Of a stretch of DNA of 64,000 nt, positions 4,327-64,000 are shown one piece after another. The first letter of the stretch is position 1. Each line of letters starts with the position of its first letter. Under the pieces are notes generated by a model, which ran no database searches, was not told where the DNA came from, and was given only the letters and a program-made list of their open reading frames with translations. This stretch comes from Candidatus Daviesbacteria bacterium (GTDB lineage: Bacteria; Patescibacteriota; Microgenomatia; Daviesbacterales; UBA10151), in assembly GCA_030699125.1 (NCBI GenBank), contig JAUYKM010000009.1:204958-268957 (forward strand). The letters run 5' to 3'. A program made the translations under genes and the position numbers.

Positions 4327-5637
4327 CTAAACTTTTGAATTTTTGACAATTTTGAAATCAGGTAGAGGAATAATGAAGTTAGATTTCAAGCCCCTTTTCT
4401 TTAATTGTTGCATGATTGGAAGTGCATAATGCCAGGCAAGTAGTACTACATAATCCGGTTGATCATCAAATAATCTTTGATTATTAACAACTGGCATATG
4501 TTTTCCAGGTAAGTACATGTTTAGTTTTAAGGATGTTGGCTGCTCAGCTAAGTAAGGAAGTAATTCAGTGTCCACGCCGTAATAATTTAGGAGAGTAGAA
4601 CATCTTCCAGGACAAGAATTTCCCACAATTTTTTTACCTTTTTTTCTTGATTTCATTAAGAAATCCATAAATTTCAGACGGGCATTTCTAACTCGATCTG
4701 CAAATAGCTTGAATGTTTCCAATTTTCCTAATCCAAATTCTTTTTCTAATTTTAATAATTTAGCCACTGATGGATTAATCTTTTTTCCCTTACCCTTTTT
4801 AACGTATATTCGAATATTGCCTCCGTATCTACTTCCTCTTTCTACCTCCACTATTGTAAAATCATATTGATTAAATAGAGTAATAAGAGCTTTTAGAGAA
4901 TACGTTCTTAAGTGCTCATGATAGATTGTATCGAATTGCCCGCCGGCTATTACATCAAGAAGGTAATGAGTTTCGGAGATAAAGATTCCATCGTCCTTTA
5001 ATAAATTGTATGCACCCATTATGAACTCTCCCAGTGTTTGCATATGGGCAAAAGTATTAGTAGTAATAATAAGAGATGCTTTCCCGTATTTTTCCTGAAT
5101 TTTTTTAGCTGTTTTTATTCCAAAAAAGGCTTGAAAAGTGTTTATACCACTTTTATTGGCAATTTTGGCAATATTCGTTGGTTCAACTCCTAATGTTTTT
5201 ATACCCTCTTCTTTAAAGCCTTGGAGTAAGGTACCATCATTTGAACCGACATCAACAATTAAGTCATTTGAATTTAATTTAAATTTTTTTATAATGGATT
5301 TACTTATTTGTTTTTGGTAATCAACTAGCTCTTTAGTGATACCGCTACGGTAAGGATAATCAGGATAATAGATCTCTTTCCCAGCTACACAGTAATCAAT
5401 TTGAACTCCCGTACAATCTTCACACCAAACCATTCTAAGAGGATAGGTTATCTCGGGTTTATCTAATTGCTCATCTGTTAGCATAGCCACACAGGGAGAT
5501 TGGTGACCTAAATCTAAGATCAAATGTAATTTTTTTGAATTACATATCTGGCAGGAAGATATATGGCCAGTTTTAACAAAATGATGCTTTGGATAAGTTA
5601 ATTTCATTTGTTTTTGAGTATAACATATCAAATCCAA
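4327..5637 (-). CDS. NDP-hexose C-methyltransferase-like (TylCIII/NovU family) with N-terminal zinc-ribbon domain
   Basis: 436 aa. An N-terminal CQICNSKK...LDLGHQSPC zinc-ribbon/Methyltransf_13-like region is followed by a SAM-binding motif (VDVGSNDGTLL) and a C-terminal C-methyltransferase-type domain. Confidence 0.6.
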   Translation of the reverse strand: MDLICYTQKQMKLTYPKHHFVKTGHISSCQICNSKKLHLILDLGHQSPCVAMLTDEQLDKPEITYPLRMVWCEDCTGVQIDYCVAGKEIYYPDYPYRSGITKELVDYQKQISKSIIKKFKLNSNDLIVDVGSNDGTLLQGFKEEGIKTLGVEPTNIAKIANKSGINTFQAFFGIKTAKKIQEKYGKASLIITTNTFAHMQTLGEFIMGAYNLLKDDGIFISETHYLLDVIAGGQFDTIYHEHLRTYSLKALITLFNQYDFTIVEVERGSRYGGNIRIYVKKGKGKKINPSVAKLLKLEKEFGLGKLETFKLFADRVRNARLKFMDFLMKSRKKGKKIVGNSCPGRCSTLLNYYGVDTELLPYLAEQPTSLKLNMYLPGKHMPVVNNQRLFDDQPDYVVLLAWHYALPIMQQLKKRGLKSNFIIPLPDFKIVKNSKV

Positions 5638-55807: not shown

Positions 55808-57115
55808 ATGAATGATTTAATGGATAAGGTTGTAGCTTTATGTAAACGTCGGGGATTTATCTATCCTGGCTCTGAGATTTATGGAGGTTTGGCTGGGACT
55901 TGGGATTATGGTCCAGCCGGTACCGAACTTAAGAGAAATCTTAAGGAATTATGGTGGAAAGAGATGGTGCAATTAAGAGAGGATATTGTGGGGCTAGATG
56001 CCGCCATTATGATGAATCCTAAAGCCTGGGAGGCCTCGGGTCATGTGGAAGCTTTCTCTGATCCTCTTGTAGAGTGTAAAATCTGCCATCAGAGATTTAG
56101 AGCAGATAAAGAGGTGGAGATCAAAGAACATGAAACAACACACAAAGAAGAGAAAGTAGAATGGACTTCTCCAGAGCAATTCAATTTATTGGTCAAAGCA
56201 TATTTGGGTGTTTTGGAAGGAAAACAATCTGAAATTTATCTAAGGGGAGAAATAACTAATGGGGTACATGTTAATTTTAAAAATGTCCTAGATTCCACCA
56301 GAGTTAAAATACCCTTTGGCATTGCCCAAATTGGCAAGGCTTTTAGAAATGAAATAACCCCCGGCAATTTTACCTTTAGATCGCGTGAGTTTGAACAAAT
56401 GGAAGTGCAATTTTATGTTAAAAATGATGAAAAAAAGGCAGAAAAGTGGTTTGATTATTGGAAACAAAATAGGATGGATTGGTATTTATCTCTGGGGATG
56501 AAAAAGGAGAATTTAAGATTCAGAGATCATGCTCCAGGCGAACGTGCCCATTATGCTAAAGCTGCTACAGATATAGAATATCAAGCTCCCTGGGGTTGGT
56601 CTGAGTTTATGGGTATTCACCAAAGAGGTGATTGGGATTTATCCAGGCATCGACAATACAGTGGACAGGATATGAAATATAGAGATCCCCAAACAGGTGA
56701 AGAATATATCCCATGGGATATTGAAACATCAGCCGGGGTGGATCGATCTGCTTTATTTATATTGATTGATGCTTATACAGAAGAAAATGGTAGAGTGTAT
56801 CTTAAACTTCACCCTAAATTAAGCCCCTTCAAAGCAGCAGTATTTCCTCTACTTGCCAACAAGGATAAACTTGTTGAAAAAGCTAAGAAAATTTATGATG
56901 ATTTGAAAAAAGATTTTATGGTAGCTTGGGATGACCGGGGTAATATTGGTAAAAGATATGCCGCACAAGACGAGATTGGCACTCCCTTTTGCATTACAGT
57001 GGATTTTGATTCGCTAAATGATGAAATGGTGACAATAAGAGATAGAGATAGCGCTAAACAGGAGAGGGTTAGAGTGGTTGACTTGAGAGCGTATTTAGAT
57101 GGTAAGATAAAATAA
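55808..57115 (+). CDS. glyQS: Glycine--tRNA ligase, alpha2 (GlyQS) type
   Basis: The N-terminus MDKVVALCKRRGFIYPGSEIYGGLAGTWDYGPAGTELKRNL is the diagnostic class II GlyRS sequence. The C-terminal anticodon-binding domain is present. Confidence 0.9.
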   Translation: MNDLMDKVVALCKRRGFIYPGSEIYGGLAGTWDYGPAGTELKRNLKELWWKEMVQLREDIVGLDAAIMMNPKAWEASGHVEAFSDPLVECKICHQRFRADKEVEIKEHETTHKEEKVEWTSPEQFNLLVKAYLGVLEGKQSEIYLRGEITNGVHVNFKNVLDSTRVKIPFGIAQIGKAFRNEITPGNFTFRSREFEQMEVQFYVKNDEKKAEKWFDYWKQNRMDWYLSLGMKKENLRFRDHAPGERAHYAKAATDIEYQAPWGWSEFMGIHQRGDWDLSRHRQYSGQDMKYRDPQTGEEYIPWDIETSAGVDRSALFILIDAYTEENGRVYLKLHPKLSPFKAAVFPLLANKDKLVEKAKKIYDDLKKDFMVAWDDRGNIGKRYAAQDEIGTPFCITVDFDSLNDEMVTIRDRDSAKQERVRVVDLRAYLDGKIK

Positions 57116-58006
57116 GTGGAAAAATTAAGATTTTGGTTTAGTACACATAAAGTAACTGCTATTTTGGGAATTTTAATCATTTTAGCCTTAGGTGGAGGAA
57201 TATTCGCCTTCCAGAAAATTTCCACAAAACCCAGCGGTCTGGCTCAGGAAGTAGATTTAATCTTTGATGCAGAAGGTCCGTACGCCCTGACTATTCCCAG
57301 AAATGACGGCAATGCCATGATTTTAAATTTGAAAAGGACTTCTTCTTATGATGAGATTTCTTATGAACTGGCTTATACTTCAGAGGCAGAAAAGGTGGCA
57401 GAAAGAGGGGGTAAAGTCTTGGAAGAAGGGGAAGAGGGAGGAGTAATTGAACGGGGAGTGGTAGGAACAATTAATACCACAGATAGAAAGGGTGAATATG
57501 AGCAGGAAATCTTATTTGGGACTTGTTCCAAAAATGTCTGTAAATATGATCAGGGAGTGGAAAATGGTACTTTGACTCTACGTATTAAGAAGGGAAATAA
57601 CGTTTATAAAATGGTGACTCAATGGCATCTGCAAAGGCCGGATATTGCCTTGGGTAAGCTTTCCTCAGGTGATGAGCATTTTAAATATGAGATAGATACA
57701 GATAGGGAAACGCTCTCAGGAGTGGGTTATTCAATAGTAAATGATCTAACCGGGGTACCGAAACTGCCTTCTGAAAAAGAGGTTTTAGGAAAAGTTTATG
57801 CTCTAAATGTACCGATTGCCAAAGATTTGCCAACCGGCCAGGTGACATATGAGCTGGCCCAAGATTCGCCGGAAGGAGCTAAAATCTATGTATTTTATGA
57901 ATCAACAAATGAATGGCAGGAGTTGGATACCAAAGTGGAAGGTAGTAAACTATCAGCCGCAGCCAACGGTAGCGGCATATTTGCAGTATTAGTCCCCCAA
58001 AAGTAA
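57116..58006 (+). CDS. Hypothetical membrane-anchored protein (GTG start)
   Basis: 296 aa with one N-terminal TM (VTAILGILIILALGGGIFAF) and a soluble domain with no recognised motif. Confidence 0.4.
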   Translation: MEKLRFWFSTHKVTAILGILIILALGGGIFAFQKISTKPSGLAQEVDLIFDAEGPYALTIPRNDGNAMILNLKRTSSYDEISYELAYTSEAEKVAERGGKVLEEGEEGGVIERGVVGTINTTDRKGEYEQEILFGTCSKNVCKYDQGVENGTLTLRIKKGNNVYKMVTQWHLQRPDIALGKLSSGDEHFKYEIDTDRETLSGVGYSIVNDLTGVPKLPSEKEVLGKVYALNVPIAKDLPTGQVTYELAQDSPEGAKIYVFYESTNEWQELDTKVEGSKLSAAANGSGIFAVLVPQK

Positions 58007-58056
58007 TATTTTGCCCCTTGACCCTTCGACCCATTCGATTAGTACTCAGGGTCTGC

Positions 58057-58120
58057 GTCCCGCCAAAGGCGGGACTTGACAATTGGCATGAAAATGGCGG
58101 AAAATAGTAATAGATGGTGA
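58057..58120 (+). promoter_or_regulatory. GC hairpin + TTGACA -35-like hexamer + two ATGGnGn boxes upstream of mraZ (candidate dcw promoter / MraZ operator)
   Basis: GTCCCGCC-AAA-GGCGGGAC hairpin at 58057-58075. TTGACA at 58076-58081. ATGGCGG at 58093-58099 and ATGGTGA at 58113-58119, 20 bp apart. Confidence 0.3.
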
Positions 58121-58135
58121 TTCTGCCCAAAATAT

Positions 58136-58546
58136 ATGTTTTTGGGCAGCTATAAAACTTATTTCAGTGGCAAGAATAGATTAATATTACCGAAGAGGTT
58201 CAGGAAAGAATTAGGGAATGAAGATAAGTTTTATATACTTTTGGGGGAAAATGGGGAAATTTGGGGATTTGATACGGGAAATTGGTTTAAGCTGACAGAA
58301 AATGTTTTAGAATTCCCACTTTCCACAGAAGAAGGTAGAGTTAAAAGGTTAAGACTCTTTCCTAAAGCTGAAGAATGTTCGCTAGATTCTCAGGGAAGAT
58401 TTATCTTACCCCAGGAGTTTATGGAGAGGTTAAATTTTAGAAAAGAGGTATTGATAATTGGCGGCGGTGATCATTTTGAGGTCTGGGATTTAAATCTTTG
58501 GAAAAAGCAGCAAGAGAAATTGGAAAATGGGCATGGAAGGTCATAA
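58136..58546 (+). CDS. mraZ: Transcriptional regulator MraZ
   Basis: MFLGSYKTYFSGKNRLILPKRFRKELG... shows duplicated MraZ/SpoVT-AbrB-like halves. It sits at the head of the dcw cluster. Confidence 0.85.
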   Translation: MFLGSYKTYFSGKNRLILPKRFRKELGNEDKFYILLGENGEIWGFDTGNWFKLTENVLEFPLSTEEGRVKRLRLFPKAEECSLDSQGRFILPQEFMERLNFRKEVLIIGGGDHFEVWDLNLWKKQQEKLENGHGRS

Positions 58547-59471
58547 GACCCTGAGTGGGTCGAAGGGGTATCATAGAAGCGTTCTTTTAAAAGAAGTTTT
58601 GGGTGCACTTAATATCCGAGATGCCTGGTATCTAGATTGTACTTTAGGCGACGGAGGGCACACGATAGAAATTATAAAGCGGGGAGGGAAAGTTGTCGGA
58701 ATAGACGTAGACCCGCAGGCCCTTGGGCGAGTGCGAAAGAGGTTTGGAATAGAAGAAATAGATAGAAATAAGTGGAAACTAATTGTAGGGAATTTTAGGG
58801 ATTTGAAAAAATTAATACTAAAGCAGACGGATCTCAAAGATCAAAAATTTGCTGGTGCCAAGTCATACTTGGCTGGGGCAATTTTTGATCTGGGGGTTTC
58901 CAGTTTGCAGCTTGAAACCCCGAGTCGGGGTTTTTCTTTCTCTAAGATAGGACCTTTGGATATGAGAATGGACCCTACTTTAGAGGTAAGGGCTTTGGAT
59001 TTAATTAACGCTGGCGGAAGAAAGCAGTTATATGAATTATTTAAAAATTTGGGTGAAGAAAAATATTCTAAACGTCTGGCTGATCATATGGTCAGCGCCC
59101 GTCAGGTAGGGGTAAAAATTGAGACCACCAAGGACCTGGCGGATTTGGTGGAACAAGTAGTTAGAAAACATGGGAGGTTGCACCCTGCCACAAAAATTTT
59201 TCAGGCGCTAAGGATAGCTGTAAATGATGAGTTGAATGCATTAAAGGAAGGATTGGATCAGGTGATAAGTTTAATTGATAAAAATGGTCACATTATAGTA
59301 ATTAGTTTTCATTCACTGGAAGATAGGATTGTCAAAGAGACTTTTAGAGCTTGGTCAGCTCAAGGCTGGGGTCAAATTTTAACCAAAAAGCCGATTGTAC
59401 CCACTTTGGAGGAAATAAATATAAATCCTCGAGCCAGATCAGCCAAGATGAGGGTATTTGAAAGGAGTTAA
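58527..59471 (+). CDS. rsmH: 16S rRNA (cytosine1402-N4)-methyltransferase RsmH (MraW)
   Basis: HRSVLLKEVLGAL, DCTLGDGGHT and DLGVSSLQL are canonical RsmH motifs. It follows mraZ. Confidence 0.9.
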   Translation: MGMEGHKTLSGSKGYHRSVLLKEVLGALNIRDAWYLDCTLGDGGHTIEIIKRGGKVVGIDVDPQALGRVRKRFGIEEIDRNKWKLIVGNFRDLKKLILKQTDLKDQKFAGAKSYLAGAIFDLGVSSLQLETPSRGFSFSKIGPLDMRMDPTLEVRALDLINAGGRKQLYELFKNLGEEKYSKRLADHMVSARQVGVKIETTKDLADLVEQVVRKHGRLHPATKIFQALRIAVNDELNALKEGLDQVISLIDKNGHIIVISFHSLEDRIVKETFRAWSAQGWGQILTKKPIVPTLEEININPRARSAKMRVFERS

Positions 59472-59474
59472 GTA

Positions 59475-59771
59475 ATGACAATAATACGAAGTTTTGAAAC
59501 AGAAATAGAACCCAAAAAATTTTCCAAAAAATATATTATTCTCACATTAGCTGCCATTTTCGCTTTAGTGATCGTGGAAATTTGGGTAAATAACACTCTT
59601 CTTATCTACGGAGAAAAATTTGATAATTTATCAAATATTGAGAAAAACTTGAAATTGGAAAACCAAATTCTGGAAAATCAGATTGCCAGGGAAACCTCGC
59701 TGGAAAAATTATCCTCAAAATCAGCTGAGCTTGGTTTTACCCAGGCCCAAGATGTAAAATATATTCCTTGA
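59475..59771 (+). CDS. ftsL: Cell division protein FtsL-like (single TM + coiled coil)
   Basis: 98 aa with one TM (ILTLAAIFALVIVEIWV) and a heptad-rich tail. It lies between rsmH and ftsI. Confidence 0.6.
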   Translation: MTIIRSFETEIEPKKFSKKYIILTLAAIFALVIVEIWVNNTLLIYGEKFDNLSNIEKNLKLENQILENQIARETSLEKLSSKSAELGFTQAQDVKYIP

Positions 59772-61468
59772 TGCGTATTTATTGGATTAGGTTACTTTTT
59801 GTAGTTTTCCTTATTGCTATTATTGCCCGCTTGTTTTACTGGCAGATTGTTAAAGCAGAGGAGCTACAGGCACAAGCTGAGGAACAACATTTTACTGATA
59901 CTCGTGTGACTGCCCAAAGAGGGAACATATATTATCTTGATAATCATATTCTGGCTTCCTCAATTCCCTCATTTAACCTTTATGCTTTGCCAAAATTGTT
60001 AACTGATGATGAAAAAAGAGAAACAGCTTACAGAATGGCAAAAGTATTATCTGATGAAGAGAGTGATACAGAAGAAGAGGCCAAAAATATCTGGGATAAG
60101 CTTTTACAAGATCTATATTGGGTACAGCTTAAAAAAAATATTGATTTAGAGACTAAGAAAAAACTGGAGGAGCTCCAAATAGAGGCAATTGGATTTAACT
60201 CCACCAGTATAAGGTTTTACCCTGAAGGTTCATCCAGTGCTCATCTTTTAGGTTTCGTCGGTTCTGACGCAAAGGGAGGAGAGGTGGGTTATTTTGGAGT
60301 TGAGGGATACTATGATGGTGAGCTTAAGGGAATGGAGGGTATTTTAAGACATGAAAGAGATGCTCTTGGTTTACCAATTCTAACTGGAGACTTTTTATCT
60401 ACAGGAGCAAGAGACGGTAAGGATTTAGTACTTAATATTGATCGCTCTGTTCAGTTTATTGTGGAACAGTCTCTAAAAAAGGGGCTTGTCCGATACGGTG
60501 CAAAGACAGCCAGTGCTATTGTTATGGATCCCGAAACCGGTGTAATTCTGGCCCTGTCCTCCTATCCTAATTATGATCCTGCCAAATACACTCAATTTCC
60601 GCCGGATTATTATAAAAATCCGGTGGTGGCAGATCATTATGAGCCTGGATCAACTTTTAAGGTTTTGGTGTTGGCAGCGGCCATTAACGAGGAGGTGGTA
60701 ACACCTGAGACTAAATGTGATATTTGTCAGGGCCCCATATCTTTGGGGGGATTTCTGATAAGAACATGGAACAATAAATACCTTGATAACCCTACTATGA
60801 CCGATGTGATTATTCATTCAGACAATACGGGAATGGTATATGTTGGCAGGAAATTGGGTTTGGATAAATTTTATCAATACTTAAAGGATTTTGGCTTTGG
60901 TAGTTCTACCAATATTGATTTACAGGATGAAGCTTTTGTAGATCTTAGGCCCAAGAGTGAATGGAGGGAAATTGATCTGGCTACTTCCTCATTTGGACAG
61001 GGAATTGCAGTTACCCCTATCCAGATGATTACAGCTATTTCCGCAATTGCCAATGGGGGGTATTTAATGGAACCACAAATAGTGAAAACTATAAAAGATA
61101 ATAATCAAGTTGTGGAAATCAAGCCAAAAATTGTCAGGCAAATTTTAAAGGAATCAACAGCCAAAATTATCACTGAAATGATGGTAAGAGCAGTTGATGA
61201 AGGGGAGTCTAAATGGGCAAAGCCCAAGGGATTTAAAATTGCCGGAAAAACAGGTACTGCCCAAATTCCTATAGCTGGACACTATGATCCTGAAAAAACC
61301 ATTGCCTCTTTTGTGGGGTTTGCACCAGCTAATGATCCCACATTTGTGATGCTAGTGCGCTATGATCAGCCATCCTCCTCCATTTATGGTTCGGAAACTG
61401 CCGCTCCCACTTTTTTTGAAATTGCCAAAGAACTTTTTACCTACTTTAAAATAGCACCCTCCGAGTGA
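59768..61468 (+). CDS. ftsI: Peptidoglycan D,D-transpeptidase FtsI / class B penicillin-binding protein
   Basis: 566 aa with an N-terminal TM and the motifs STFK (SxxK), HSDN (SxN) and KTGT (KTG). Confidence 0.9.
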   Translation: MMRIYWIRLLFVVFLIAIIARLFYWQIVKAEELQAQAEEQHFTDTRVTAQRGNIYYLDNHILASSIPSFNLYALPKLLTDDEKRETAYRMAKVLSDEESDTEEEAKNIWDKLLQDLYWVQLKKNIDLETKKKLEELQIEAIGFNSTSIRFYPEGSSSAHLLGFVGSDAKGGEVGYFGVEGYYDGELKGMEGILRHERDALGLPILTGDFLSTGARDGKDLVLNIDRSVQFIVEQSLKKGLVRYGAKTASAIVMDPETGVILALSSYPNYDPAKYTQFPPDYYKNPVVADHYEPGSTFKVLVLAAAINEEVVTPETKCDICQGPISLGGFLIRTWNNKYLDNPTMTDVIIHSDNTGMVYVGRKLGLDKFYQYLKDFGFGSSTNIDLQDEAFVDLRPKSEWREIDLATSSFGQGIAVTPIQMITAISAIANGGYLMEPQIVKTIKDNNQVVEIKPKIVRQILKESTAKIITEMMVRAVDEGESKWAKPKGFKIAGKTGTAQIPIAGHYDPEKTIASFVGFAPANDPTFVMLVRYDQPSSSIYGSETAAPTFFEIAKELFTYFKIAPSE

Positions 61469-61480
61469 TACCATTTATTT

Positions 61481-62221
61481 ATGGAACTTAAGGGTAAAGT
61501 ATTTATTTTAACCGGAGCAAAAAGAGTTGGTCAGGATGTGGCTAAAGCTTTGGGTGAGAGAGGTGCCAATTTGGCAATTTCCTATAATTCTTCGATAGAA
61601 GATGCTCAAGAATTAAAGAAGGAATGTGAATCTGTTGGTTCCCGCGCCGAAATTTTTAAAGCAGATCTTTCTAAAAGTGAAGATATCGGTCGTCTTGTGG
61701 ATGAGACTTTGAAAAAGTTTGGCGCAGTTGATGGACTTATTCATATGGCTGCCAATTATCCCAAAACTCCTATTGGTGGGATTACATTGGAGGATTTTGA
61801 TAAAACAATGCATATAATTGCTGCTTCTACTTTACTTTTGGGGCAAAAAATAGGCAAAGAAATGCAAGAAAACGAAGGAGATGTTAAAGGAAAAATAATT
61901 TTTTTCTCTGATTGGTCAGTTTTAAGATCCCCTTATCCGAATTATATTGTTTACAATGGGGCCAAATCAGCGGTGGAATCTTTTACCAAAAGTTTAGCAA
62001 GGCAATTTGCTCCATCCATTACTGTTAATGCTATAGCTCCTGGGCCAATCCTTAGGCCCCCTGATTTATCAGATGATGACAATGAGGAAGTGATGAAAAA
62101 AACTCCTCTTCAAAAATGGGGAGGGGGAGACGAGATTGAAAAAGCTGTTTTGTACTTGCTGGATGCAGACTTTGTAACAGGAGTAGTTTTACCTGTTGAT
62201 GGTGGCAGATCAATTGCTTAA
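61481..62221 (+). CDS. Short-chain dehydrogenase/reductase (classical SDR)
   Basis: 246 aa. LTGAKRVGQDVAKAL is a TGxxxxxG-like motif, YNGAK is the YxxxK, and PG follows. Confidence 0.7.
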   Translation: MELKGKVFILTGAKRVGQDVAKALGERGANLAISYNSSIEDAQELKKECESVGSRAEIFKADLSKSEDIGRLVDETLKKFGAVDGLIHMAANYPKTPIGGITLEDFDKTMHIIAASTLLLGQKIGKEMQENEGDVKGKIIFFSDWSVLRSPYPNYIVYNGAKSAVESFTKSLARQFAPSITVNAIAPGPILRPPDLSDDDNEEVMKKTPLQKWGGGDEIEKAVLYLLDADFVTGVVLPVDGGRSIA

Positions 62222-62722
62222 AGAGATCCTCTTTATTTTTCTTTCAAGATACTTTTGTGCTTGTACATTATTAATTGCGTCAAAGGTAAACATGGTTCCT
62301 AAAGCTGCAGCAAGTGGAGGATAAAGTAGTCCTAAACTTAATAAGACTGAATCAATAGCTGCCCACTTTTTACTGAAAACCCCTCTCTCTGTAGGATAAA
62401 GAGAATAAAGTCGGTTACCCTCATAGGTATTATGTTTTATACCAGCTTCATTAGCTCTTATGGCAGTTCTTGATCCGTGAACAGTACTTATTCTATCTGC
62501 CAAACGGCCAATAATAAAAACAGACGCTCCTAAAACATACCCGGGTAAAAAATTTTCAGTAGGAGTTCCAAAAATTTGATCCCTATATAATAATACCTGA
62601 GTAGTAAGTCCTTCTAAGAATAATGGGATTTGAGGAAAATTTCCTTCGATGTAGCTGTAATTAGTTATAAATTTATCAAAAGAACTTTTGTTCTCTATTT
62701 CCATAGTTGTTGAGTATAACAT
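62210..62722 (-). CDS. Hypothetical protein
   Basis: 170-aa reverse-strand ORF with a hydrophobic segment and no recognised motif. It is convergent with the SDR gene. Confidence 0.35.
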   Translation of the reverse strand: MLYSTTMEIENKSSFDKFITNYSYIEGNFPQIPLFLEGLTTQVLLYRDQIFGTPTENFLPGYVLGASVFIIGRLADRISTVHGSRTAIRANEAGIKHNTYEGNRLYSLYPTERGVFSKKWAAIDSVLLSLGLLYPPLAAALGTMFTFDAINNVQAQKYLERKIKRISLSN

Positions 62723-62757
62723 TTGGATAATCCAGTTTTCTACTTCTTTGTAATCGA

Positions 62758-62808
62758 CAAACTACCTACGGCCGTGATAATCTTGAAATATGTATAAAAA
62801 GAAGAGTT
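62758..62808. repeat. Direct repeat copy 1 (about 50 bp, contains the ACGGCCGT palindrome and the start of the PaaX-like gene)
   Basis: AAACTACCTACGGCCGTGATAATCTTGAAATATGTATAAAAAGAAGAGTT is ~80% identical to copy 2 at 63296-63346. Confidence 0.6.
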
Positions 62809-63290
62809 TATCTAACCTCATTTTGTTAGCTTTGGAAAAATCAGTAGATGGTTACGTAAGATTAGAAAATTTTTTATATAACCCTGGATATTATGCTTAT
62901 CATAATGGATGGGATTACCCATTAAAAAAGTCCTCATTTGGACTAGCTCTTAAAAGATTGAGGGAGAATGGTTTGATAGACTTTGTTGGAGATAACGAAT
63001 TAATTATTAGACTTACTGATAAGGGAAGGGGGAAAACGCTAATGCTGAGCTTACTAGAAAATAATGATAAATGGGATGGTAAATGGAGGATAATTATCTT
63101 TGATGTTCCAGAAAAAAGAAGAATTGCAAGGGATTTATTAAGACAAAAATTAAAAGGGTGGGGATTTACTCCATGGCAGCAAAGTGTTTGGGTTACAAAA
63201 AAGAATTGCACAAAACAATTGAGGGATTTTATTAAGAATATTGGAATAAAGGATTGGGTAAAGGTTATTGAATCAGACAATGTTGATTAA
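62790..63290 (+). CDS. PaaX-like C-terminal-domain protein (putative small transcriptional regulator)
   Basis: 166 aa. WDGKWRIIIFDVPEKRRIARDLLRQKLKGWGFTPWQQSVWV matches the PaaX-family C-terminal signature (W-DG-W, [VI]-x-[YF]-D-[IV]-P-E, SVWV). Confidence 0.5.
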   Translation: MYKKKSLSNLILLALEKSVDGYVRLENFLYNPGYYAYHNGWDYPLKKSSFGLALKRLRENGLIDFVGDNELIIRLTDKGRGKTLMLSLLENNDKWDGKWRIIIFDVPEKRRIARDLLRQKLKGWGFTPWQQSVWVTKKNCTKQLRDFIKNIGIKDWVKVIESDNVD

Positions 63291-63295
63291 TGCTT

Positions 63296-63346
63296 CAAAC
63301 TATATACGGCCGTTAATAGTTTGAAATTTGTATTATAAGGAGAGTT
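63296..63346. repeat. Direct repeat copy 2 (upstream of murE)
   Basis: AAACTATATACGGCCGTTAATAGTTTGAAATTTGTATTATAAGGAGAGTT. Its ATG-equivalent is TTG, followed by a degenerate (L)YYKES versus MYKKKS. Confidence 0.6.
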
Positions 63347-63379
63347 CTGATGATATAATTAACGGCGGCAAGTTACTAA

Positions 63380-64000
63380 ATGAATTACTTGAAACAATTA
63401 TTGCGGGGATTTTTTCCTCAAAATTTTATCAATAAATTTTACCATCTTCCCATGGCCTTTTTGGCCAATTTATTTTATGGGTTTCCCACCAGAAAACTGA
63501 TTGTAATTGGGGTGACTGGTACTGACGGAAAAACCACCACCACCAATATGATTTATAGGATTCTAAAAGCCGCAGGCAAAAAAGTATCCATGGTATCAAC
63601 AGTTAATGCATATGTGGGGGGTAAAATTTATGATACTGGTTTTCATGTTACTTCTCCTGATCCATTCATGGTACAAAAATTTGCCGGAGCAGCAGTTAAT
63701 CACGGTGATAAATATCTTATTTTGGAAGTGACCTCTCACAGCTTGGATCAAGTAAGATTTTGGGGAGTAAAATTTAAAATCGGAGTGATTACCAATATTA
63801 CTCATGAACATCTAGATTATCATGAAACTTTTGAAAATTACAAAAATACAAAATTATCTTTACTAAAAAACGGCAGTTTTGCAATTATTAATGATAATTT
63901 AAAAAAAGATGTAGCAGGAAAAACTAAAGCTGATATTATTACCTTTGGTCTCTCTTCCGGGGACTTTAATCAAAAGGAGATTAACCTTAAGCTAAAGATT
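63380..64000 (+). CDS. murE: UDP-N-acetylmuramoyl-tripeptide synthetase MurE (N-terminal part; continues beyond the window)
   Basis: VIGVTGTDGKTTTTNMIY is the Mur ligase P-loop. ITNITHEHLDYH is a Mur ligase motif. It sits in the dcw cluster after ftsI. Confidence 0.8.
   Translation, partial: MNYLKQLLRGFFPQNFINKFYHLPMAFLANLFYGFPTRKLIVIGVTGTDGKTTTTNMIYRILKAAGKKVSMVSTVNAYVGGKIYDTGFHVTSPDPFMVQKFAGAAVNHGDKYLILEVTSHSLDQVRFWGVKFKIGVITNITHEHLDYHETFENYKNTKLSLLKNGSFAIINDNLKKDVAGKTKADIITFGLSSGDFNQKEINLKLKI

Follow-up and report, generated by a model that had tools for sequence, protein, structure and literature searches.

A recurrently remodelled slot between ftsI and murE in Daviesbacteria that carries a putative PaaX-like local repressor

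The division and cell wall (dcw) cluster is a frequent textbook example of frozen gene order, and a genome of Candidatus Daviesbacteria raises the question of how three additional genes came to lie inside it. We analysed a 64,000-nucleotide stretch (hereafter the window) of contig JAUYKM010000009.1, part of a metagenome-assembled genome (MAG) of this groundwater member of the Microgenomates in the Candidate Phyla Radiation (CPR), which has a tiny genome (NCBI locus tags Q8P92_02340/02345, on a 360-kb contig). A preliminary description made from the sequence alone had reported mraZ-rsmH-ftsL-ftsI followed by a short-chain dehydrogenase/reductase (SDR) gene on the plus strand, a hypothetical gene on the minus strand (hyp170), a PaaX-like gene on the plus strand (mini-PaaX) and murE from position 63380, and the open reading frame (ORF) list and domain scans reproduced this order in full. 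The canonical dcw order is not found here, as 1911 nt with three genes separate ftsI from murE. That description interpreted the three unrelated genes as an insertion; the evidence below shows an insertion that is real but composite and recurrent, at an operon boundary that has been remodelled repeatedly, and not a one-off foreign event. Taken as a whole, we consider it likely that the ftsI/murE junction is a permissive, variable operon-boundary slot reshuffled by homologous recombination, with mini-PaaX acting as an autoregulated local repressor.

The source is a MAG, and public data hold close strains that differ in slot content, so that the ftsI-SDR or PaaX-murE junctions might be chimeric joins of strains or genomes. 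Such an artefact is very unlikely, to the point of being negligible. An independently assembled Logan contig (L019, from SRR13727534) is 100% identical to positions 59055-64000 (4946 nt), spans all junctions and extends past the window into the remainder of murE and then a murB-like gene, a contig from a separate run (L020, SRR26726065) is 100% identical over 62452-63361, covering the hyp170/PaaX-like junction, and the pairwise adjacencies ftsI-SDR, SDR-PaaX and PaaX-murE are each seen again in other genomes. We therefore treat the misassembly that the preliminary description had allowed for as excluded.

A scan of the genome collection with FtsI returned 18 loci, 13 of which contain both ftsI and murE, and in each of these 13 the interval between the two is free of the three slot genes. 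The ftsI-murE gap is 23-124 nt in 12 of them and 432 nt with one small ORF in the other (L001). As more distant Microgenomates (L010-L012 and L018 [Chisholmbacteria]) are among the 13, direct ftsI-murE adjacency is likely ancestral, and the preliminary description was right to treat the arrangement in the window as derived. Other Daviesbacteria fill the slot in different ways: ftsI-PaaX-like-murE in L021 (complete genome CP066688) and L118, with PaaX-like proteins 72% and 77% identical to that of the window; ftsI-SDR-PaaX-like-murE in L110 (SDR 85%, PaaX-like 66% identical); ftsI-SDR-hyp231-murE in L112 and L113, two independent assemblies (SDR 87%); and ftsI-SDR-hyp235-NUDIX-murE, with the NUDIX gene on the minus strand, in L114 (SDR 62%). 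SDR orthologues at 62-89% amino acid (aa) identity thus directly follow ftsI in L110, L112/L113 and L114, and PaaX-like orthologues at 66-77% directly precede murE in L021, L110 and L118. A single insertion of three unrelated genes does not fit this separate recurrence of SDR and PaaX-like orthologues in the same slot, nor is the composition foreign, the GC content being 0.31-0.40 for the slot and 0.33-0.43 for the flanking DNA. The preliminary description had named the same genes at the same position in relatives as the finding that would overturn it, and this applies by half: the individual genes recur, and the full trio is found only in the window.

L110 keeps ~75 nt of sequence matching the 3' end of hyp170 at ~90% identity, and hyp170 was therefore once present there and later deleted. 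This deletion, together with the SDR at 62% identity in the slot of the distant L114 and the presence of the PaaX-like gene in the slot of four genomes, would fit an ancestral arrangement in which the Daviesbacteria ancestor held SDR, hyp170 and PaaX-like genes in the slot and the 'empty' genomes lost them. We regard such vertical retention as unlikely, given the direct ftsI-murE adjacency of the more distant Microgenomates, the SDR DNA that is far more alike between lineages than ftsI, which points to transfer, and the SDR homologues that other CPR genomes carry in unrelated contexts. Slot content does not track the FtsI tree either: the FtsI of L112 is 98% identical to that of the window at the aa level, yet L112 holds another cassette.

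How the content of the slot is exchanged can be read from the window and L112/L113, whose flanks are 94-99% identical. A blastn comparison of L019, which is equivalent to the window, with L112 gave 94% identity over ftsI and the SDR gene up to 62209 and 94.5% from 63419 in murE, with no homology between these breakpoints (1209 nt in the window vs 815 nt in L112), and alignments placed the left breakpoint in the last SDR codons and the right one ~13 codons into murE. The N-terminus of MurE in the window is closest to that of L118 (79% aa identity). The SDR DNA is itself a mosaic, as sliding identity between the window and L112 falls to 73% at 61543-61692, and L112 and L110 are 89-93% identical in SDR DNA and only 58-78% in ftsI. 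This pattern indicates allele and cassette replacement by homologous recombination among Daviesbacteria lineages, in which the conserved flanks (ftsI/SDR and murE) would have served as homology arms.

Domain, repeat and tRNA scans found no integrase, transposase, tRNA or CRISPR near the slot, and marks of an insertion sequence (IS), integron or island were likewise absent, with no transposase or integrase in or beside the slot and no orphan sites in the window, where tblastn with the three slot proteins detected no paralogues. These results also bear on whether the slot might be a defence or phage-derived island built of Cas2-like, NUDIX and similar genes. Its content does vary between close strains, there are weak Cas2-domain matches, and the NUDIX gene of L114 matches the PADLOC candidate PDC-S07; however, SDR, hyp170 and hyp231 have no PADLOC or PHROGs match, the Cas2 similarity is only sub-threshold, as expected for PaaX_M, and the window contains no CRISPR array, cas1, integrase or tRNA, which makes an island of this kind highly improbable.

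Several observations on the slot in relatives stand apart from this argument. The genes hyp231 (L112, 2526-3221) and hyp235 (L114, 5761-6468) follow the SDR gene in two distant genomes, their products share 39% identity and gave no domain in a Pfam scan, and they may act as a functional partner of the SDR, one missing from the window. In L001 (9879-10106) the slot has content of a fourth kind, a 75-aa ORF (MRKMQNVASAIDHLKTHQTYPATKAQLVAECNN…) that may resemble DUF2795. The empty slots of L001 (9711-9800), L003 (3465-3560) and L009 (9699-9790) share a conserved non-coding element of ~70 nt (…AAATCCGCAGGTGTnAACnTATTCCACCCCAAGGGTG…) between ftsI and murE, which might represent a small RNA or a leader, or be left over from a different cassette.

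The resident of the slot next to murE is the PaaX-like gene. Its 166-aa product matched PF20803 (PaaX_M) over residues 93-164 with 82.9 bits (cut-off 24), and an AlphaFold2 (AF2) model (mean pLDDT 78) had E. coli PaaX (8a39) as its top Foldseek match over 165 columns, followed by the PaaX-like structures 3kfw and 3l09, winged helix-turn-helix (wHTH) proteins of the MarR/PadR type and Cas2. In the N-terminal half the model has the order H-E-H...H-E-E over residues 7-75 (pLDDT 59-85), and a profile search returned weak MarR matches (E 0.07-0.5). Pfam detected no PaaX_C, the protein ending at residue 166, and TIGR02277 scored 30.7 bits against a cut-off of 264.55; we call it mini-PaaX because it has about half the length of PaaX and is without the PaaX_C domain. 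The phenylacetyl-CoA-responsive PaaX of E. coli and Pseudomonas shares with it the Cas2-like PaaX_M, preceded in mini-PaaX by a candidate N-terminal winged helix, but is ~305-316 aa long and has a C-terminal helical domain thought to bind the effector. A further difference from PaaX is that no paa genes occur in any locus examined; the neighbours in this genome are ftsI, SDR and murE, and those at other loci include dprA, pepN, efp and rpmG. With Cas2 the C-terminal half shares the ferredoxin-like fold and a conserved Asp at the end of beta1 (FD[IV]PE; D105, invariant in the family), but Cas2 models stayed below threshold (PF09827, 17.4 vs 23.8 bits; TIGR01573, 18.6 vs 24.5 bits), the domain is joined to a putative DNA-binding domain, and the window holds neither an adjacent cas1 nor repeat arrays, and thus no Cas2/CRISPR module.

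A 51-nt direct repeat brackets the mini-PaaX gene (62758-62808 and 63296-63346, 78% identical), and its exact core TACGGCCGT is found at those two places only within the 64-kb window. The upstream copy overlaps O1, a putative operator with its core ACGGCCGT in the spacer of the sigma70-like mini-PaaX promoter TCGACA-16-GATAAT. Eight nt separate the end of the -10 box from the ATG, and the mini-PaaX mRNA is probably leaderless. The downstream copy overlaps O2, a near-perfect 32-nt palindrome (TTCAAACTATATACGGCCGTTAATAGTTTGAA) that starts 4 nt after the mini-PaaX stop. In E. coli, PaaX recognises distal inverted hexamers (TGATTC-N27-GAATCA) and represses its own promoter, Px, by sterically blocking RNA polymerase (PMC9493321). 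A long palindromic operator with distal inverted arms that overlaps its own promoter, as in the PaaX family, is thus present here at the sequence level; that of mini-PaaX differs in carrying an additional CG-rich core at its centre and in being repeated immediately behind the gene.

The two-site layout recurs within the family, for which 521 homologues were found, and was present around homologues in every context examined. A survey of the flanks of 66 non-redundant mini-PaaX loci found the upstream promoter-palindrome layout in 65, its centre mostly at -18/-19 from the start, and a downstream copy in 53, centred +14 to +21 from the stop; a locus's own upstream and downstream flanks matched at >=16/20 in 73% of the 66 loci compared with 9.5% for cross-locus pairs. 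Even a 36%-identical Amesbacteria homologue (L016) has a core, ACGGTCGT, on both sides, and the core changes jointly in both copies, with ACGGCCGT twice in the window, L021 and L118 and ACGATCGT twice in L110, L030 and L031. Clades of the protein tree match both the type of operator and the gene downstream (dprA, pepN, efp or murE): the dprA clade has CTCGATCGAG operators and retains in its downstream copy the -10 box together with an unchanged distance to the dprA ATG, the pepN/efp clade has CCTCCGATCGTGG operators, and the murE-slot loci have CAAACT...ACGGCCGT operators, the window and CP066688 being sisters with L110 nearby. To judge from this shared promoter anatomy, O2 in the dprA clade is evidently the promoter/operator of the next gene.

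Complementarity within the palindromes reaches 72-100% in two regions, the core (offsets 1-4) and the distal arms ACAAA/TTTGT (offsets 13-16), and is only ~0.5 between them, and mismatches show no excess of G.U over A.C (44 vs 46). This pattern, the lack of G.U bias and inconsistent RNA-fold energies accord better with a DNA operator bound by protein than with a hairpin in the transcript. O2 was also considered as an intrinsic terminator of the PaaX-like gene or a repetitive extragenic palindrome (REP)-like element whose likeness to the promoter region is incidental. An RNA hairpin can form in the window (-12.3 kcal/mol, z -2.0) and in L028 (-18.9 kcal/mol, z -5.7), but it is weak or insignificant in L021, L110 and L025 (z -1.4, 0.0 and -0.7), the middle of the 'stem' is about half complementary, the terminator scan did not call O2, and the downstream copy of the dprA clade has non-palindromic promoter sequence and the -10/ATG spacing in common with the upstream one. 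We rejected the terminator, and hold this account as a whole to be distinctly unlikely.

A gene precisely bounded by repeated palindromes in dozens of genomic contexts, with some copies adjoining tRNA genes (L025, L102) and an invariant Cas2-type Asp, might instead be a small selfish mobile cassette of the IS200/RAYT or integron-like kind, with a Cas2-like nuclease and the palindromes as its ends. Yet paralogues differ by at least 25-35% and include no near-identical copies, the 64-kb window has no second copy or orphan site, and positions are stable within the orthologous dprA, pepN and murE clades. Further, there is no precise pair of empty and filled sites and no target duplication, the window/L112 breakpoints lie inside flanking genes, and the upstream copy is a functional-looking sigma70 promoter, all of which make mobility of this sort quite improbable.

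An autoregulated local repressor is thus the likeliest role for mini-PaaX on the anatomy of gene and sites. We propose that a mini-PaaX dimer would bind the ~32-bp palindrome through the distal arms CAAAC/GTTTG and the core ACGGCCGT, and that occupancy of O1, between the -35 and -10 elements of its own promoter, would cause autorepression by occluding RNA polymerase, possibly in response to a ligand. O2 precedes the murE -10 box by 43 nt. By looping or as a roadblock it could act together with O1, and it could also influence how much transcription enters murE and the downstream mur genes. Two matched sites 538 bp apart, one of them at the promoter, recall the dual operators of lac (O1/O2) and gal (OE/OI), with the difference that looping would here be pure conjecture and that the second operator of some mini-PaaX paralogues is clearly the promoter of the next gene.

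The murE side of the slot has features of its own. In most relatives a candidate -10 box (TATAAT) precedes the murE start by 7-8 nt, and the first ~13 murE codons belong to the exchanged segment. murE probably starts its own, possibly leaderless, transcription unit, which would explain why this junction tolerates insertions. Similar -10-like boxes (TATAAT, GATAAT or TATACT) 7-8 nt before a start codon, with no Shine-Dalgarno sequence, are present at several genes, in the window at 62776-62790, 62704-62718 (minus strand) and 63353-63380 and elsewhere at the murE starts of L002-L009, L021, L110, L112 and L118; leaderless mRNAs may be common in Daviesbacteria.

Several points weigh against the combined interpretation of a recombining slot with a local repressor. 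(i) The Pfam model of the PaaX N-terminus gave no match, and the wHTH is read from a region of the model with a pLDDT of 60-80. (ii) We infer DNA binding by mini-PaaX solely from the anatomy of its sites, and 13 of the 66 loci have no recognisable downstream copy. (iii) The four murE-slot loci differ in how far the centre of O2 lies from the start of murE (~38, 59, 70 and ~141 nt), and O2 overlaps the murE -35 region in L110 only. A direct effect of O2 on murE in this genome is accordingly doubtful, and control of murE, by roadblock, looping or upstream binding, is no more than plausible. (iv) The relatives are metagenome assemblies, and mosaic patterns could partly reflect strain-mixed assembly, a concern countered by the agreement of L112 and L113, which were assembled independently.

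Unlike PaaX, mini-PaaX belongs to a family with several paralogues per tiny CPR genome, each beside a housekeeping gene. Two paralogues, L036 and L081, lie ~16 kb apart on one 113-kb contig (Ga0209541_10000198), and CP066688 carries at least two copies (L021, L025), so that a genome of ~0.8 Mb holds more than one member of the family. One clade lies between mreC-mreD-mrdA, which includes the elongation penicillin-binding protein (PBP), and dprA or EamA-dprA (L026/L039/L040, 4070-5938, and neighbours), and thus a second cell-wall transpeptidase gene is trailed by a family member, as ftsI is here. Some cassettes lie between or beside tRNA genes (L025, 5880-5960 and 6590-6700; L102, ~5520-5570), where tRNA-like sequence is visible on the minus strand of the flanks. 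We raise as a tentative possibility, well short of probable, that mini-PaaX genes are Microgenomates/CPR-specific self-contained regulatory cassettes (promoter-operator, 166-aa repressor, second operator) that have duplicated and come to lie in front of the core housekeeping genes murE, dprA, pepN, efp and rpmG, with the truncated Cas2-like domain serving as a sensor or second activity. If so, such cassettes could be a principal layer of transcription control in host-dependent bacteria poor in transcription factors, and the one described here would couple peptidoglycan precursor synthesis (murE and downstream mur genes) to a signal.

In the literature searched, no paper connects PaaX with CPR or Patescibacteria, none that deals with Daviesbacteria is relevant to this locus, and a large mini-PaaX family with duplicated operators in Microgenomates appears to be undescribed. 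Few regulators can be recognised in CPR bacteria, which are uncultured. The mini-PaaX family offers a clear, testable operator code in which the clade of the protein corresponds to the type of palindrome and to the adjacent gene, and its putative sites and targets, readable from sequence, provide a handle for electrophoretic mobility shift assays (EMSA) or DNA affinity purification sequencing (DAP-seq) and for reading metatranscriptomes.

Extra genes at the ftsI/murE junction are not unprecedented. In Bacillus subtilis the order is pbpB-spoVD-murE, so that one additional gene separates the ftsI homologue from murE, and this Firmicute cluster resembles ours in that the junction accepts added genes within a conserved cluster. 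There, however, the addition is a duplicated PBP of related function that is fixed in the lineage, whereas the slot in Daviesbacteria holds unrelated genes and varies even between ~95% identical genomes. That one junction inside the dcw cluster is a variable slot exchanged by recombination at such close range bears on whether operon boundaries, rather than gene function, set where very small genomes tolerate plasticity. We see the slot as an interesting, not extraordinary, case of local genome plasticity.

The SDR gene would be an older resident of the slot, encoding a PTR1/FolM-like NADPH reductase and joined to the ftsI transcription unit at its 3' end. The gene starts 12 nt past ftsI with no promoter-like site and is probably co-transcribed with it for that reason. 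adh_short_C2 matched its product with 148 bits, and the dinucleotide-binding motif LTGAKRVGQDVA (TGAKRVG) and catalytic YNGAK are present, consistent with the TGAxKRxG and YxxxK motifs of PTR1/FolM-type reductases. The best models are pteridine and dihydromonapterin reductases, but the protein falls below all equivalog cut-offs, the best NCBIfam match being pteridine reductase NF006598 (184 bits vs a cut-off of 288), and no folate or pterin genes lie nearby. More than 1299 homologues occur across CPR. We rejected the SDR as a general CPR dcw gene; its homologues at 57-61% identity lie in unrelated neighbourhoods, and linkage of the SDR to the dcw cluster is therefore specific to a subset of Daviesbacteria. 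An Rfam search of 57000-64000 returned only sub-threshold matches, a ylbH leader and a group II fragment, both taken as chance; the former lies inside the SDR coding sequence (61800-61910; 28.9 bits vs a gathering score of 50, E 0.004) and is probably spurious.

The minus-strand ORF hyp170, as judged from its conservation, is a real gene and a member of an unannotated family. A word-indexed search returned hyp170 alone, and the family became visible only by an exhaustive HMMER search, which found 37 remote homologues (E<1e-3, 25-41% identity, 107-347 aa, most 130-200) with common motifs (GRLAD..ST, E.N, FPP.G), conserved D76/E101/P135 and hydrophobic segments. hyp170 had no Pfam, PADLOC or PHROGs match, and Pfam scans of 24 family members gave noise only. 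The ORF has 170 aa and the NCBI annotation 164 aa; the TATACT -10 box (62718-62713) of its promoter-like site lies 8 nt from an ATG at 62704, and the true start is likely Met7 at that position, in agreement with the NCBI call. hyp170 would be a divergently promoted small membrane protein.

Table 1. Genes, putative sites and the exchanged segment at the ftsI-murE slot (window coordinates).
Feature	Position	Strand	Evidence
mraZ	58136-58546	+	PF02381, 2.6e-27
rsmH (mraW)	58527-59471	+	PF01795, 2.8e-85
ftsL-like small gene, 98 aa	59475-59771	+	by position; 30-53% identity in relatives
ftsI (class B PBP), left slot border	59768-61468	+	PBP_dimer and Transpeptidase
SDR reductase, PTR1/FolM-like	61481-62221	+	adh_short_C2, 4.5e-43
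Segment replaced relative to L112/L113, which carries hyp231	62210-63418	.	blastn breakpoints and alignments
hyp170, small predicted membrane protein	62210-62722	-	37 remote homologues
hyp170 promoter-like site, TAGAAA-18-TATACT with TG	62713-62742	-	consensus scan only; geometry read from sequence
O1, putative operator in the mini-PaaX promoter	62754-62789	+	promoter scan, repeat search
mini-PaaX (PaaX_M/Cas2-like), 166 aa	62790-63290	+	PF20803, 1.7e-23
O2, 32-nt palindrome	63294-63325	.	repeat search
murE candidate -10 box, TATAAT	63353-63358	+	read from sequence; conserved in relatives
murE 5' part, right slot border, leaves the window at 64000	63380-64000	+	Mur_ligase_M, 3.9e-36; murE models, 1e-48 to 1e-50

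Further observations concern the cluster around the slot. A Pfam scan gave no match for the ftsL-like gene. MurE is short (~403 aa; L019, 4326-5537), beginning at Mur_ligase_M and without the N-terminal Mur ligase domain, and the product of the neighbouring murB-like gene (L019, 5530-6114) has 194 aa with FAD_binding_4 only and without the MurB C-terminal domain; short MurE/MurB-like forms are also present in L021, L110 and L114. Several public MAG records (L002, L007, L008, L012, L013, L014 and L017) are titled 'uncultured Gammaproteobacteria bacterium' or 'Nevskiaceae bacterium', and their taxonomy labels look wrong, as dcw order is the same and FtsI is 47-70% identical. Between glyS and mraZ the window encodes a 296-aa protein (57116-58006) that has no Pfam match and is found at the same position in nearly all related loci at 30-69% identity.

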